Shown piece after piece: positions 47,062 through 51,986 of a DNA stretch of 64,000 nucleotides. The translations under genes were made by a program, and so were the position numbers. Every line of letters begins with the position of its first letter. Within the stretch, counting starts at the first letter, position 1. The notes beneath the pieces are model-generated. The model did not search any database. It worked only from the letters and a program-made list of their open reading frames with translations, and was not told where the DNA came from. The DNA comes from an uncultured Candidatus Saccharibacteria bacterium (GTDB taxonomy: Bacteria; Patescibacteriota; Minisyncoccia; Phycocordibacterales; UBA2100). The stretch spans positions 41,296 through 105,295 of the forward strand of contig CAYTFU010000002.1 in assembly GCA_964437185.1 (NCBI GenBank), given 5' to 3'.

Positions 47062-47202
47062 GTTCGGCGAGCACGGTTCTATATGTCTGATTTATTTGAA
47101 CTCATAGGGACCATGTACGTTGGGGCAGTCGATGTCGTATCTGCGCTTATACCGAGATCTTCGCGAAAATCCGCTGCCCACCCTCTGCGGCTTTACAACA
47201 CA

Positions 47203-48609
47203 ATGAGTGGTGCCATTGAGCTATTTAAGCCACTTCGAAAGGATGCGGTCAAAATGTACAACTGCGGTCCGACTGTCTACGGCAGGCAGCATATCGGCAA
47301 CCTTTCGATGTTTATCTTTACGGATACGCTTCGCAAGGTACTTCTGTACAACCACTTCACCGTTAAGCAGGTCATTAATTTTACCGACTTCGGCCACCTA
47401 TCATCCGACAACGACGAGGGCGAGGACAAAATGACGAAAGGCTTAAAGCGCGAAGGAATGGCGCTTTCTATAGAGAACATGCGCGTGCTCGGAGAGAAGT
47501 ACGCGAATATCTTTCTCGAAGACCTTCGCCAGCTCAACGTTGACGTTGATCACGTTACCTTTCCGCGCGCGAGTGACTTTGTATCCGAGCAAATAGCGAT
47601 GATCCGAACCCTGGAAGAAAAGGGCTACACCTACCAGTCGCACGGGTGCGTGTATTTTGATACTTCCCTCTTACCGGACTATGGCAAGCTCGGCAATATC
47701 AATCTGGAGGGATTAATATCGGGCGCTCGCGTCAAAGATAGCCACAAAAAACACCCCACGGATTTTTTGCTCTGGAAAGCGAGTAGGCGCGTGGGATGGA
47801 TGAGCCCGTGGGGCAAAGGATTTCCCGGGTGGCACATTGAGTGCTCTGCGATGATTAGAGCGACGCTCGGCACTCAAATCGATATTCATACGGGGGGAAT
47901 CGAGCACATACCCATCCATCACAACAACGAAATAGCGCAATCTGAATCTGCGACCGGCAAAAAACCCTTTGCTCAGTATTGGCTGCACCGCGCGCATATT
48001 CAACTCGAGGGTTCAAAAATTGCGAAATCTGGCGGCAACGTTATTTACCTCAGCGATGTTATCGAGCGCGGTTTTCACCCACTTGCACTTCGCTACCTTT
48101 TTTTGACCGCTCATTACCGCACTCCCTCAAACTTTACTTGGGAAGCACTCGGGGCCGCTCAAACCGCGTTCGCGAAGCTCGTCGGCTTCCGATTGTCACT
48201 CGCAGACGCTGAAAAAGACGCTGTATCAACCCATTGGAGATCGGCATTTGTGAGTCGACTTAACGACGATCTCGAAACTCCGGCAGCCATCGCGGTGGTA
48301 TGGGAAATGGTTTCGGATAAGTTGCTTAGTAGTGCACAAAAACTTGCTACGCTCCTTGACTTTGATTCTGTACTTGGGCTTAACCTCGCGGAACCCGATG
48401 AGCACGCTCTCCGGCTCGCGCGTGAACACACGAGAGAAGAGGTAGTGGCCGGCGATCTACCCGACGCTATCGCCCACCTCGTCAGAGAGCGCGAAGAGGC
48501 GCGAGATGCGAAAGATTGGTCCAGGGCAGATGAACTGCGGATCCGAATTCAGTCCGAAGGATACGCGCTCGAAGACAAAGATGGCGCTACAAAAATACTC
48601 AAAATCTAG
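47203..48609 (+). CDS. cysS: cysteinyl-tRNA synthetase
   Basis: MYNCGPTVYGRQHIGN (HIGH), KIAKSGGN (KMSKS variant), Zn ligand Cys; start ATG 47203. Confidence 0.9.
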   Translation: MSGAIELFKPLRKDAVKMYNCGPTVYGRQHIGNLSMFIFTDTLRKVLLYNHFTVKQVINFTDFGHLSSDNDEGEDKMTKGLKREGMALSIENMRVLGEKYANIFLEDLRQLNVDVDHVTFPRASDFVSEQIAMIRTLEEKGYTYQSHGCVYFDTSLLPDYGKLGNINLEGLISGARVKDSHKKHPTDFLLWKASRRVGWMSPWGKGFPGWHIECSAMIRATLGTQIDIHTGGIEHIPIHHNNEIAQSESATGKKPFAQYWLHRAHIQLEGSKIAKSGGNVIYLSDVIERGFHPLALRYLFLTAHYRTPSNFTWEALGAAQTAFAKLVGFRLSLADAEKDAVSTHWRSAFVSRLNDDLETPAAIAVVWEMVSDKLLSSAQKLATLLDFDSVLGLNLAEPDEHALRLAREHTREEVVAGDLPDAIAHLVREREEARDAKDWSRADELRIRIQSEGYALEDKDGATKILKI

Positions 48610-48614
48610 CCTTC

Positions 48615-51600
48615 TTATTCCTTCACAACGAAATTGACCAAGCGGCCTGGCACGAGGATAGTACGTACAATTTCTCTTCCAGCAACGCGCTCGCTCACTG
48701 CCTTCCTCGCTTCCCCTTCTATTGCTGTCTTATCCGCATCAGACGCAACATCGATCTGCGCGCGTGTTTTGCCGTTGACTTGCACTGCAATTGTCATCGT
48801 CTCAGATTTAAGATATTCCGCTTTGTAAACGGGCCACGTTTGTAAGTGGACGGACGACTTGTGGCGCTCCGACCAGAGTTCTTCCGCCATGTGAGGGGCA
48901 AACGGCGCCAGGATTTTCAAGAACGTGTCCCACTGTACTGCGCCAATTTTACCCTCTGACTCAATGGCATTGAGTAGTATCATGAGCTGACTAATGGCGG
49001 TGTTAAATTTTAGCGCCGCGATGTCCTCCCCTACTTTCTTTATCGCTTTGTGCAGAACATTCTGGAGCGCATCAACCTCCCCTTTCGCAACCATAAACTG
49101 GATTTTCCACGCACGCTCCAAAAATCGCCTCACCCCCACCACCCCATCGGGATTCCATGGATAGCTCGACACTTCGTTGTATGGCCCGATAAACGCGAGA
49201 TACATGCGCACCGTATCCGATCCGAGCTGCGCGACTACGGCATCTGGATCGATCACATTCCCGCGTGATTTACTCATCTTTTGACCGTCGGGGCCCATGA
49301 TGAGGGATCGGTTCATGCGACGCGTATACGGCTCTTTGTCTTTCACCAAGCCGAGATCGTACATGGCCTTCTGCCAAAAACGGCTATACAGCACGTGCAT
49401 AGTCGTATGTTCAGCGCCTCCCGAATACAAATCTATCGGCATCCACTTCGCAAGTTTTTTCGGATCTGCAAATTTCGATCTGTTTTTTGGATCACAGTAG
49501 CGCAAAAAATACCACGAAGAGTCTATGAATGTATCGAACGTATCAGTCTCTCGCTCCGCCGGCTTTTTACATTGCGGGCACTTTACCTTCACCCACTTCG
49601 TAGCCTTCGCAAGCGGCGACTTGCCACTCCCCTCCGGTAGATAGTCTTTGACCTCCGGCAACTTCACAGGCAAATCTTTATTCGGCACCGCGACAGGCCC
49701 GCACACGGCGCAGTGAATAATCGGTATGGGCACTCCCCAATATCTCTGACGCGACACGATCCAGTCACGAAGTTTGTAAGTCGTCTTTACTCGTCCATAC
49801 TTTGCCGTAATTCTTCCGATTGCTTCGCGATTCATGAGGCCAGTAAACTCTCCGGAGTCAACAAGTATTCCCTCCTCTGTATATGGCTGGTATCCGGTCA
49901 CGCGCTTCCAAGCAATCATCACATCGGGACGATTGATAAACCGAGAAAATTCTTCGGGCCCGTACCAACCCACATCATGACGTGACTTTTCGTGCTCGGA
50001 AACAATATCTTGCTCGCCGTTTTCTAGACTGTACAAAAGCGGCGTAAAATCTACGAGACGATTTACCTTTTTCTCTACGCTGTAATATTTTCCCCATATA
50101 TGACCGCCGAGAGATCGCACAAGCTTTGCGCTCCGATATCCAGTCTCCTCGCGAATTTCGCGTATGCCAGCCTCCACGGCATCTTCTCCTTCTTCAATAC
50201 CACCCGAGACGCACTCATTGACCTTCGTCGGTTTGAAGTGCACTCCGAGGTATTTGTCCTCCGACCAGTGCTTTACAATCGCAAACACAGATTTTCGGCG
50301 CTCAAGCGGTTCTCCTTCGCGTACCGCATCAAGCCCGCCCTTGAAAAGCGAGAGTGGTTCAACCACCTCCTTAATTGGTAGTTTAAACTTAGTAGCAAAC
50401 TCATGGTCGCGCTCGTCGTGCGCAGGGACTGCCATAATCGCGCCTGTACCGTAGTGGGCAAGCACATAATCTGCTATCCAAACGGGGATCTTCTCTCCTG
50501 TCGCCGGATTGATGGCTCTCACACCCTTCAACTCCACTCCCGTTTTCTCTTTCTGGTCTGCCATCCTCTCCAGCTCCGTCTTTCGCTTTGATGCCTCAAC
50601 GTATGTTTTTATTTCGTCAGCGTTTGCGCACAGACCACTCCGTATAAAATCCGAGACCCAACGGTGCTCAGGAGCCAATACCAGGTACGTCGCGCCGAAA
50701 AGCGTGTCCGCGCGCGTGGTAAAGACTCGCATAGTAGGCCTGAGCCACATAAGCACGTCTGGCTCAGTGTCACCTGTAAAGTGCGTCGCATTCGATACAC
50801 CTAGCTCAACGCGCGTACCGAGCAAATCCGCAAGGGCTTGCGCCTGTTGATCTGAGATGGCGTGATCGCGTGGATCGTGCAAAACCGTAAATGAACCAAC
50901 GTTTCGCTTAATAGCTTCAGAATCAAATTTCCACGACCACGTTTTTTCAAACAGTCTCTTTTTGTCTTTAAACTTCGTATCCACAAAGCCCCCGATGGTT
51001 ACCAGCCGCGCAACGGGCTTCGTAAGTTGCTCCGCCACTTTGAGCGCGAGCACGGCCCCGAGACTGTGGCCAACGATCACAGTGCGTTCATCGTACGTCG
51101 TCGCGCTTATTGCGTACTCGACCTGCTCGCGCTCCGTGGGATTATCAGTGTTGGGAAGGCGCGGAATAACTACTTCGTGACCCATTTTTTCCAGCTCCGC
51201 CTTCACCCACTTCCACCGCGGCGCATCAGGAGTTCCGCCAAATCCGTGAAAAATCACAAACTTGTACTTCTGACCAAGATCGAGGACAAAATCTATCTCG
51301 GCTCCTTCACTTCGACCAATCCAATTTCTCTGAGATTCTTTGATCTGCTCCGGCCAGTCCAGTCCATCGAGGTCGTCGATCAGTCGGTCTGCATAATCAG
51401 TAATCTTTATATTCCACTGCAACATTTTCCTCTGCACGACTTCGCTGTCGCATCGCTCACATCTTCCAGAAACCACTTGTTCATTTGCGAGTACCGTCTT
51501 GTCCTTCGGGCACCAGTTTACCGCGGTCTCTTTACGATATGCGAGCCCCTTTTTGAAAAATTCGAGAAAAAGCCATTGCGTCCATTTGTAGTACGCCGGA

Positions 51601-51986
51601 TCACACGTAATCACTTCTCTCGACCAATCAAAGGATGTGCCCATGGAGCGGATCTGCTTCTTCATGAACTCGATATTCCTGTACGTCCATGTACGCGGAT
51701 TTATGTTGTTCTTTATGGCAGCGTTTTCGGCGGGCAAACCAAACGCATCGAAGCCGATCGGATAAAGCACATTTTTCCCCTGCATCCGCTCCGCGCGCGC
51801 AAAAATATCTGGTACAGCAAATGCGTACCAGTGACCGACGTGCAGATTTCCCGAGGGGTATGGAAACTCGACGAGTAGGTAGGAATTTTTCTTCCCTTTT
51901 ACTGAATCTCGGGTCCTGTAAAGTTTCGATTTATCCCATCGCGCTTGCCACTTTCGTTCAATTGCCCGATGATCATATTTTTTCAT
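48615..51986 (-). CDS. leuS: leucyl-tRNA synthetase with two inserted hydrolase domains (Ser alpha/beta-hydrolase and Nudix), 1123 aa
   Basis: HVGH and QKMSKS, editing TTRADTLFGATYLVLAPEH / AHDERDHEF; extra GHSLG hydrolase (aa ~236-415) and GX5EX7REUXEEXGU Nudix box (aa ~596-618). Confidence 0.9.
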   Translation of the reverse strand: MKKYDHRAIERKWQARWDKSKLYRTRDSVKGKKNSYLLVEFPYPSGNLHVGHWYAFAVPDIFARAERMQGKNVLYPIGFDAFGLPAENAAIKNNINPRTWTYRNIEFMKKQIRSMGTSFDWSREVITCDPAYYKWTQWLFLEFFKKGLAYRKETAVNWCPKDKTVLANEQVVSGRCERCDSEVVQRKMLQWNIKITDYADRLIDDLDGLDWPEQIKESQRNWIGRSEGAEIDFVLDLGQKYKFVIFHGFGGTPDAPRWKWVKAELEKMGHEVVIPRLPNTDNPTEREQVEYAISATTYDERTVIVGHSLGAVLALKVAEQLTKPVARLVTIGGFVDTKFKDKKRLFEKTWSWKFDSEAIKRNVGSFTVLHDPRDHAISDQQAQALADLLGTRVELGVSNATHFTGDTEPDVLMWLRPTMRVFTTRADTLFGATYLVLAPEHRWVSDFIRSGLCANADEIKTYVEASKRKTELERMADQKEKTGVELKGVRAINPATGEKIPVWIADYVLAHYGTGAIMAVPAHDERDHEFATKFKLPIKEVVEPLSLFKGGLDAVREGEPLERRKSVFAIVKHWSEDKYLGVHFKPTKVNECVSGGIEEGEDAVEAGIREIREETGYRSAKLVRSLGGHIWGKYYSVEKKVNRLVDFTPLLYSLENGEQDIVSEHEKSRHDVGWYGPEEFSRFINRPDVMIAWKRVTGYQPYTEEGILVDSGEFTGLMNREAIGRITAKYGRVKTTYKLRDWIVSRQRYWGVPIPIIHCAVCGPVAVPNKDLPVKLPEVKDYLPEGSGKSPLAKATKWVKVKCPQCKKPAERETDTFDTFIDSSWYFLRYCDPKNRSKFADPKKLAKWMPIDLYSGGAEHTTMHVLYSRFWQKAMYDLGLVKDKEPYTRRMNRSLIMGPDGQKMSKSRGNVIDPDAVVAQLGSDTVRMYLAFIGPYNEVSSYPWNPDGVVGVRRFLERAWKIQFMVAKGEVDALQNVLHKAIKKVGEDIAALKFNTAISQLMILLNAIESEGKIGAVQWDTFLKILAPFAPHMAEELWSERHKSSVHLQTWPVYKAEYLKSETMTIAVQVNGKTRAQIDVASDADKTAIEGEARKAVSERVAGREIVRTILVPGRLVNFVVKE

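Follow-up and report, generated by a model that had tools for sequence, protein, structure and literature searches.

A complete RBBP9/YdeN-type serine hydrolase nested in the CP1 editing domain of a patescibacterial leucyl-tRNA synthetase

Why should a leucyl-tRNA synthetase (LeuRS) hold a second, complete hydrolase inside its own editing domain? The question is raised by the leuS gene on a contig of an uncultured Candidatus Saccharibacteria bacterium (phylum Patescibacteriota), of which a stretch of 64,000 nucleotides was analyzed (GenBank assembly GCA_964437185.1, contig CAYTFU010000002.1, positions 41,296–105,295; hereafter the window, to which all coordinates of this gene refer). The leuS open reading frame lies at 48615–51986 on the minus strand, as do all features of the gene given below, and encodes 1123 amino acids followed by a stop codon; TIGR00396, Pfam, and Foldseek identify a LeuRS with two inserted enzyme domains. 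The first insert, at 50733–51278 (amino acids 237–418), is a lidless α/β serine hydrolase of the RBBP9/YdeN family (PF06821), as found by Pfam, phmmer, AlphaFold2 (AF2) modeling, and Foldseek. Together, the data fully support a complete RBBP9/YdeN-type Ser–Asp–His hydrolase nested in CP1 of a genuine LeuRS.

The host protein is an ordinary bacterial-type LeuRS apart from its inserts. In the list of open reading frames, the frame is uninterrupted over all 1123 residues, and the product scored 950 bits against the leuS_bact model TIGR00396 (cut-off 548) as a full-length equivalog. Pfam recognized tRNA-synt_1, tRNA-synt_1_2, the editing domain PF13603, and Anticodon_1. The class I signatures HIGH (NLHVGHWY, residues 47–54) and KMSKS (residues 903–907) are both present and invariant across the orthologues, and the editing motifs TTRADT (residues 423–428) and AHDERD (residues 522–527) were also found. 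The score and the four motifs confirm the first-pass annotation of the minus-strand frame as LeuS. The phmmer alignment with Thermus thermophilus LeuRS (Tth; Protein Data Bank [PDB] ID: 1H3N; E = 3e-222) consists of four collinear blocks, with two extra query segments between them: residues 1–236 (=Tth 1–237), 419–543 (=Tth 243–363), 701–898 (=Tth 376–579), and 903–1122 (=Tth 637–877). The AF2 model of the full-length protein had a mean predicted local distance difference test score (pLDDT) of 88.8 and a predicted template modeling score (pTM) of 0.75, and Foldseek matched it to LeuRS crystal structures at E values of ~1e-79 (PDB ID: 2BTE, E = 5e-79). In the phmmer alignment, the leucine-specific domain of the T. 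thermophilus and Escherichia coli enzymes (Tth ~580–636) has no counterpart, and residues 899–902 stand in its place. The leucine-specific domain of these two enzymes is not universal, and its absence, being a variable feature, leaves the membership in the LeuRS family unaffected. Just four residues separate the conserved blocks that flank this point before KMSKS (49266–49295; residues ~898–907).

The site of the hydrolase is defined by the same alignment, in which residues 237–418 stand in place of a five-residue turn of Tth CP1. Directly before the insert runs the N-terminal tether with the first strand of the CP1 hairpin, RSEGAEIDFVLD (51279–51314; residues 225–236), which corresponds to Tth 226–237 and is predicted to be a strand. 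The insertion point is thus the tip of the first CP1 β-hairpin, where the strand of residues 225–236 prolongs the N-terminal tether, and the return strand (residues 418–423) leads straight into the Thr-rich editing peptide (residues 423–428). The first-pass annotation had placed the insertion at the hinge into CP1; the CP1 site holds, and the hinge is replaced by the hairpin tip. The boundaries given there, 50727–51290 (residues 233–420), are refined here to residues 237–418.

As for the family, the insert alone scored 30.5 bits against PF06821 Ser_hydrolase (cut-off 22; E = 4e-7), and Abhydrolase_1 (E = 1.6e-9) and Abhydrolase_6 also exceeded the cut-off. Within the full-length LeuRS, PF06821 scored 25.5 bits, which is above the cut-off and nested in the tRNA-synt_1 LeuRS as the first-pass annotation had expected. 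In a phmmer search of the PDB with the insert, the best matches were RBBP9 (E = 8e-10) and YdeN (E = 1e-4). No known family of editing domains matched the insert in Pfam, NCBIfam, or Foldseek. The fold is equally clear. In the full-length AF2 model, the insert is a discrete and confident domain (pLDDT 88–96), and when modeled alone with 28 diverse sequences it reached a pLDDT of 97.5 and a pTM of 0.93. YdeN (TM score 0.87, root mean square deviation 2.3 Å) and RBBP9 (TM score 0.84) lead the Foldseek result with E values of ~1e-12, and the next fold appears only at 5e-7, five orders of magnitude behind. The discrete fold and the YdeN/RBBP9 type proposed earlier from motifs alone are therefore borne out by the PF06821 score, phmmer, the alignment of the triad, and Foldseek.

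The catalytic residues are found at the expected positions of this family. The oxyanion-hole motif His247–Gly248 follows strand β1 (51243–51248) and was located by conservation. The nucleophile elbow GHSLG (51057–51071) contains Ser308 (codon 51063–51065), which is aligned to Ser75 of RBBP9. In the motif DPRD (50865–50876), Asp374 (50865–50867) is the probable catalytic acid and is equivalent to Asp138 of RBBP9; Asp371 is encoded at 50874–50876. His402 of a THF motif (50781–50783) is the putative catalytic base, aligned to His165 of RBBP9. Thus, Ser308, Asp374, and His402 superimpose in the alignment on the complete RBBP9 triad. A WxW motif is common to the insert and RBBP9 in the alignment. 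In the HMMER alignment, Lys343 lies opposite Glu108, the residue that anchors the α-amine in RBBP9, and position 341, two residues upstream, is Asp here (Asp in 102 and Gly in 11 orthologues).

Could such an arrangement have been produced by a chimeric assembly, or by a frameshift that fused a neighboring gene? No support for this was found, although free-standing hydrolase genes that adjoin leuS elsewhere, described below, make a fusion by error imaginable. Against it, the frame is uninterrupted, the hydrolase is nested within leuS and not appended to it, and the identical LeuRS protein is recorded on four contigs of independent assemblies with the same neighbors. LeuS proteins of similar length, which the first-pass annotation had proposed to look for in related genomes, proved to be widespread: a full-length search returned >110 clusters at 90% identity, ~1120–1150 residues long, with the same nested order and 59–75% identity to the query. 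These clusters come from NCBI, JGI, ENA, and Logan, and the named ones are Candidatus Kaiserbacteria, Paceibacterota, or Parcubacteria. A single-protein scan found the insert inside long leuS frames in eight GTDB species representatives, again in nested order. Because >110 orthologues share the triad and the nested order, the architecture is not an assembly artefact; chimeric assembly and frameshift fusion are excluded by the recurrence in the clusters and on the four contigs, and the chance of such an error is vanishingly small. The GC content across the insert (0.52–0.56) is indistinguishable from that of the remaining leuS, and this lack of a compositional break rules out recent foreign DNA. 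An intein or another mobile splicing element was also rejected: there were no Hint, intein, or homing-endonuclease hits in Pfam, the junction residues are wrong (...FVLD|LGQKY... and ...WLRPT|MRVF...), and the hydrolase fold accounts for the whole segment.

Is the nested hydrolase still an enzyme? Conservation was counted in an alignment of 120 LeuRS sequences, with the sequences having the insert as denominators. Ser308 is present in 117/117 orthologues and His402 in 118/118, position 374 is acidic in all 117 (Asp in 102, Glu in 15), and the HG motif retains His in 117/117 and Gly in 114/117. The mean pairwise identity is 77–81% in the catalytic core of LeuRS, 67% in the CP1 editing domain, 46% in the hydrolase insert, and 44% in the second insert, a Nudix domain. 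Both inserts drift faster than the LeuRS core yet retain their catalytic residues, and this invariance within a faster-evolving segment argues for selection on catalysis. Judged from its residues, the hydrolase is apparently catalytically competent.

The editing site next to it has not been sacrificed. The canonical CP1 editing core (50358–50732; residues 419–543; PF13603, =Tth 243–363) contains TTRADT at 50703–50720 and AHDERD at 50406–50423. By its motifs TTRxDT, GTG, and AHDxRD, the canonical editing site appears intact, and Thr423, Thr424, Arg425, Asp427, and Thr428, Gly513, Thr514, and Gly515, and His523, Asp524, Arg526, and Asp527 are invariant or nearly so across the orthologues. Behind this core follows the second insert, the Nudix domain at 49887–50357 (residues 544–700), which replaces a 12-residue CP1 loop (Tth 364–375) in the phmmer alignment. 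Its match to PF00293 (33.9 bits, cut-off 21.1) upholds the first-pass annotation of a Nudix hydrolase in the same LeuRS. The Nudix box, GGIEEGEDAVEAGIREIREETGY (50136–50204), conforms to the intact consensus GX5EX7REUXEEXGU, with Gly595, Glu601, Arg609, Glu610, Glu613, Glu614, and Gly616 conserved. The sole sequence match of this insert in the PDB was an Ap4A hydrolase, restricted to the box and, at E = 8e-5, too weak to use.

Neither insert has been kept throughout the Kaiserbacteria family. Ten relatives lack one insert and have an ordinary short loop instead (SEGALISFKLKVPNEDAIEVFTTRADT in P0100, for example). A tree of the LeuRS core scatters the single-insert variants among the double-insert sequences, and one of them, P0097, which still has a vestige of the Nudix segment, is separated by a distance of just 0.03 from P0004, which has both inserts. 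On these grounds, the clade ancestor is judged from the sequences to have carried both inserts, with the hydrolase lost at least three times and the Nudix domain at least seven times. A stepwise gain of the two inserts was rejected in favor of repeated loss on account of the scattered variants and the P0097 remnant.

Whether LeuRS is a special host or one of many can be judged from the distribution of the domain. An exhaustive profile search with the insert recovered 4934 representatives (E ≤ 1e-3), of which 89 had E ≤ 1e-30, and the best 150 of the 4934 were classified with hidden Markov models of LeuRS segments and with Pfam. In the first group, as here, the hydrolase interrupts the CP1 hairpin of LeuRS (site A). 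In a second group, of at least 10 representatives at the 50% identity level, the hydrolase lies directly after the HCxxC zinc knuckle of LeuRS (site B), as located by aligning P0133, P0179, P0173, P0240, P0187, and P0182 with the present LeuRS; in the latter, the corresponding turn, HCAVCGP (49695–49715; residues 758–764, HCxxC = 759–762), is uninterrupted. Some site-B LeuRS have lost the second Cys of the zinc knuckle. A third group holds LeuRS with further additions: two tandem hydrolases in P0191 (1169 residues), a GNAT acetyltransferase and a hydrolase ahead of CP1 in P0226 (1318 residues), and extra Nudix copies in P0144, P0156, and L008. The last, a LeuRS-like frame of ~1550 residues (L008:2063–6739, +; CAYTUZ010000011.1), is more divergent: its hydrolase also occupies the CP1 hairpin, and of its three Nudix boxes, two form a tandem in the connective region ahead of NWIGRSEG; its HIGH and KMSKS signatures read HVGHPKGY and KMSKR, and P0144 and P0156 look similar.

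Beyond LeuRS, single representatives carry the hydrolase inside ValRS, AlaRS, TsaD, SecA, UvrA, EngA/Der, and a formyltransferase, and one is fused to Adk (P0168, P0180, P0178, P0159, P0193, P0200, P0210, and P0234); several of these hosts recur in independent assemblies. End-to-end fusions were found with Nudix, in three cases outside LeuRS (P0227, P0233, and P0253), and with peptidase S51, S33/S9-type hydrolases, HD, glyoxalase, and nucleotidyltransferase domains. Many members are free-standing proteins of ~180 residues; P0124, 350 residues long, is likewise free-standing but holds the hydrolase in tandem. In a neighbor-joining tree of the domain (178 columns, indicative only), a mostly free-standing or terminally fused group is split from an insertion-prone group, in which the inserts of LeuRS (sites A and B), ValRS, AlaRS, TsaD, SecA, and UvrA are mixed with ~15 free-standing members. 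Asp at position 371 is specific to the insertion-prone subfamily, and most free-standing relatives have Ser. To judge from these sequences, the hydrolase is an unusually promiscuous, insertion-competent enzyme domain.

Across all host contexts, the nucleophile is Ser in 158 of 159 domains, the acid is Asp in 135 and Glu in 19 of 159, the base is His in 143 of the 144 domains aligned there, and the HG motif has His in 152/154. These counts bear on the idea that the insert is a non-catalytic module, that is, a docking or sensing fold for a partner protein or ligand, for which hydrolysis is irrelevant. RBBP9 itself entered the literature as a protein-binding factor (background in PMC8866121), and both inserts are dispensable in some lineages. 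However, Ser, His, the acid, and HG are essentially invariant across the 159 domains while the rest is only ~46% identical, and a mere scaffold would not be expected to keep catalytic residues. We therefore consider a non-catalytic role highly improbable.

The breadth of hosts raises the main rival to any LeuRS-specific function. The hydrolase may be a passenger: a compact, insertion-tolerant housekeeping enzyme, such as a general esterase or aminopeptidase, that has nothing to do with leucylation and that, in the streamlined genomes of Patescibacteria, rides on constitutively expressed essential proteins, of which LeuRS would merely be the commonest carrier. The many unrelated fusions of the same subfamily and their recurrence in independent assemblies speak for this, as do the insertion sites, which are always surface hairpin turns, the repeated clean losses, and the faster evolution of the insert than of its host. 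Still, a passenger without preference leaves unexplained why LeuRS is the host in ~45 of the ~53 cases of internal insertion found among the best 150 representatives, and why two unrelated insertion sites exist in this one synthetase.

Gene neighborhoods point in the same direction. The sample consisted of 10 stand-alone members of the insertion-prone group, and in six of them the hydrolase gene directly adjoins leuS in the same direction. The TAA stop codon of P0127 is followed after 6 nt by the ATG of an insert-free leuS of 809 residues; leuS starts 3 nt downstream of P0139; P0154 lies 37 nt upstream of leuS; P0157 lies 25 nt upstream of a leuS that bears the Nudix insert; and P0169 lies 3 nt downstream of leuS and overlaps a Sua5/TsaC gene. 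The sixth, P0146, belongs to an overlapping operon of two hydrolases, a YbaK-type tRNA_edit protein, a Ham1 ITPase, and an archaeal-type LeuRS (leuS_arch 751 bits). A seventh, P0163, is close by, 1.35 kb upstream of leuS with two intervening genes. P0164 is not linked to leuS and lies in an RmuC operon, P0134 is on short, largely unannotated contigs with no leuS visible in the flanks, and P0160, counted among the 10, is on a contig for which no DNA was available. Stop-codon recoding at the hydrolase/leuS junction of L009 was rejected, as an ATG stands 6 nt after the TAA and the two are separate genes. In the other group of the domain tree, the free-standing P0207 has a clearly archaeal context with a Nudix gene immediately upstream (adjacent genes L018/L019).

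The operon of P0146 indicates that the link of the hydrolase spans both LeuRS types and adjoins a known trans-editing factor. This operon of two Ser_hydrolase genes, YbaK-type tRNA_edit, Ham1 ITPase, and archaeal-type LeuRS stands at L017:4001–8549 (+; GCA_020049755.1, JAHZTO010004402.1) and, by its gene content, looks like an operon for translation fidelity and nucleotide house-cleaning. As read from gene order and fusions, the pairings of the hydrolase with LeuRS and with Nudix recur, fused as well as neighboring, across bacterial and archaeal LeuRS types. The adjacency to leuS in 6/10 free-standing members, including an archaeal-type leuS, is a further point that the passenger explanation does not cover, and we regard that explanation as unlikely.

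At the present locus, leuS has no hydrolase gene beside it; neither a second LeuRS nor a free copy of the hydrolase or the Nudix domain was found in the 64-kb window. The neighboring cysS (47083–48609, +) is convergent with leuS, and the two ends are 5 nt apart. An independent contig, L013, has the identical gene order of DUF5671, leuS, cysS, CorA, PDZ-S41 peptidase, L9, and L27. In an Rfam scan of positions 1–64000, no family reached the gathering score, and no tRNA, rRNA, riboswitch, or RNase P was found.

Here, we tentatively propose that the insert is a LeuRS-dedicated hydrolase of aminoacyl (thio)esters or amides, serving as an accessory proofreading or house-cleaning site. We give this somewhat less than even confidence. 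What the data show is the fold and family of the insert, its intact, conserved catalytic residues, its insertion geometry at the sequence level, and its genomic linkage to LeuRS and Nudix; the substrate class and the service to LeuRS fidelity are what we infer. The linkage to LeuRS takes four forms that appear independent in the sequences compared, namely site A, site B, tandem copies, and free-standing genes adjoining leuS, and the other aminoacyl-tRNA synthetases that host the hydrolase are ValRS and AlaRS. The comparative evidence of the two sites, the adjoining genes, and the YbaK operon strengthens the case for a specific link with LeuRS, and keeping the hydrolase in or beside leuS in several independent ways suggests an accessory LeuRS activity.

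In the proposed mechanism, the hydrolase would be held on the first CP1 hairpin, at the tip, where the Thr-rich editing peptide is just a few residues away in sequence, and would clear aberrant aminoacyl products of the LeuRS reaction that escape CP1. Ser308 would attack the α-aminoacyl carbonyl to form an aminoacyl-enzyme, and a water molecule activated by His402 and Asp374 would then free the aminoacyl group from Ser308. A candidate substrate is the 3′-ester of mischarged tRNA(Leu); candidate small molecules are homocysteine thiolactone, released aminoacyl-adenylate, and an aminoacyl (thio)ester. The hydrolase would usually cooperate with the Nudix domain, whose insertion lies 125 residues further along the chain, and it may act in cis, inserted at one site or the other, or in trans, encoded beside leuS.

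The substrate class is suggested by three characterized enzymes. RBBP9, the nearest relative of the insert to have been characterized, is an aminopeptidase with an obligatory requirement for a free α-amine, and it forms a single-amino-acid acyl-enzyme on Ser75 (PMC8866121). Human RBBP9 (PDB IDs: 2QS9, 7OEX, and 9FCR) shares with the insert the lidless α/β fold of ~180 residues, the GxSxG motif, and the aligned Ser, Asp, and His; unlike the insert, it is a free-standing eukaryotic protein and an aromatic aminopeptidase, it is only ~24% identical, and its Glu108 is not kept in the insert. We know of no link between RBBP9 and aminoacyl-tRNA synthetases. Among YdeN homologues, ML-005 acts as a short-chain esterase on short water-soluble esters, and the lidless pocket of YdeN was suggested to accept water-soluble esters or thioesters (PMC6119806). 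Bacillus subtilis YdeN (PDB ID: 1UXO) is the best fold match of the insert and belongs to the same family, PF06821; in contrast to the insert, both YdeN and ML-005 stand alone, ML-005 is secreted, and neither has a described association with translation genes. The α/β serine hydrolase BPHL acts on α-amino-acid esters of nucleoside analogues and on homocysteine thiolactone (PMC4198189). BPHL, also called valacyclovirase, is thus a mechanistic precedent for the recognition of a free α-amine next to an ester or thioester carbonyl, although it belongs to a different α/β-hydrolase subfamily, is larger, is not among the top fold matches, and has no link to aminoacyl-tRNA synthetases. Homocysteine thiolactone is a by-product of editing by class I synthetases. 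By analogy, the chemistry of RBBP9, ML-005, and BPHL makes aminoacyl esters, thioesters, or amides the likeliest substrate class, and given the LeuRS linkage, a product or by-product of LeuRS is its most plausible source. Within this class, the acidic domains and the Nudix and Ham1 partners lean toward a small molecule, and the position beside the Thr-rich peptide of CP1 and the YbaK neighbor lean toward the 3′ end of tRNA.

Several observations weigh against a dedicated LeuRS function and against a simple module for post-transfer editing, which the first-pass annotation had suggested as a possibility. The subfamily also occurs in TsaD, SecA, UvrA, EngA, and the formyltransferase, and as fusions to Adk, peptidase S51, HD, glyoxalase, and nucleotidyltransferase, so that the hydrolase is not exclusive to aminoacyl-tRNA synthetases. 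The losses in the Kaiserbacteria family, at least three of the hydrolase and at least seven of the Nudix domain, indicate that it is dispensable, and since the CP1 editing site is intact, there is no obvious gap to fill. A test of the net charge of the hydrolase domains for an RNA-binding surface was negative: the domains are mostly neutral to acidic, and for the free copies adjoining leuS the net charge ranges from −5 to −10, apart from a single copy at +6. The mostly acidic character argues against autonomous tRNA binding and for a small substrate, and a hydrolase lacking RNA-binding character would also suit a passenger. Finally, the equivalent of Glu108 of RBBP9 is non-acidic here (Lys343), and only the nearby Asp341 is conserved.

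The RBBP9 chemistry permits another reading, in which the domain supplies leucine. As an aminopeptidase or amino-acid-ester hydrolase, it would free Leu or other hydrophobic residues from scavenged peptides, and its co-expression or fusion with LeuRS in amino-acid auxotrophs would match supply to demand. RBBP9 prefers hydrophobic and aromatic N-terminal residues, the fusions include peptidase S51 and peptidase-like hydrolases of the S33/S9 type, the synthetase hosts all serve aliphatic amino acids (Leu, Val, and Ala), and organisms of the candidate phyla radiation (CPR) are generally amino-acid auxotrophs. However, a freely diffusing amino acid gains no obvious channeling from physical insertion, and the recurrent Nudix partner, the operon with YbaK-type and Ham1 genes, and the hosts TsaD, UvrA, and SecA are left unexplained. 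A role in leucine supply is, in our view, rather improbable.

How would a LeuRS-dedicated hydrolase compare with known editing systems? The CP1 domain of LeuRS, the INS domain of ProRS with YbaK/ProXp, and the editing domain of AlaRS with AlaX resemble the present case in that a hydrolytic module is nested in a synthetase; the editing modules INS/YbaK and AlaX have free-standing homologues as well as homologues embedded in synthetases. The free copies of the present hydrolase mostly adjoin the cognate synthetase gene. The insert differs from CP1, INS/YbaK, and AlaX in having an unrelated fold and chemistry and in occurring also in non-synthetase proteins; tRNA deacylation is a proposal in its case. 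To our knowledge, all editing domains of aminoacyl-tRNA synthetases belong to a handful of folds, none of them an α/β serine hydrolase, and we know of none with an α/β-hydrolase Ser–His–Asp triad or a covalent acyl-enzyme. A precedent for an extra enzyme domain in a class Ia synthetase is, by its model name, IleRS with an N-acetyltransferase domain (NCBIfam NF040702, ileS_w_GNAT), a case that differs in its host as well as in the enzyme inserted. The insert might accordingly represent an unrecognised class of proofreading module, with a Ser–His–Asp triad and a covalent aminoacyl-enzyme, dedicated to LeuRS in cis or in trans, paired with a Nudix pyrophosphatase, present in CPR bacteria and some archaea, and clearing mischarged tRNA(Leu) or reactive small-molecule aminoacyl by-products that escape CP1; this broader claim is possible but doubtful.

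The first-pass annotation knew of no synthetase with this architecture. This holds for the literature searched, as a search of open-access papers and bioRxiv found no description of a LeuRS with such a hydrolase/Nudix architecture and the AARS Online paper mentions neither a Nudix nor a hydrolase domain. It does not hold for the sequence databases, in which >100 automatically annotated copies are present as "alpha/beta fold hydrolase," "NUDIX domain-containing protein," or "class I tRNA ligase family protein."

If the link with LeuRS is functional, it would introduce a new chemistry into translational quality control or into the detoxification of by-products of aminoacyl-tRNA synthetases. The LeuRS would then be a synthetase to which an accessory hydrolytic module is available, either in cis or in trans, and if this module does clear tRNA or by-products, it could count as a new class of editing module. 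A functional link would also provide the bacterial RBBP9/YdeN family with a first physiological context and illustrate how ultra-small symbionts fit accessory activities into essential enzymes. Should the hydrolase prove instead to be a passenger, the data still document an unusually promiscuous, insertion-competent domain in the housekeeping proteins of Patescibacteria.

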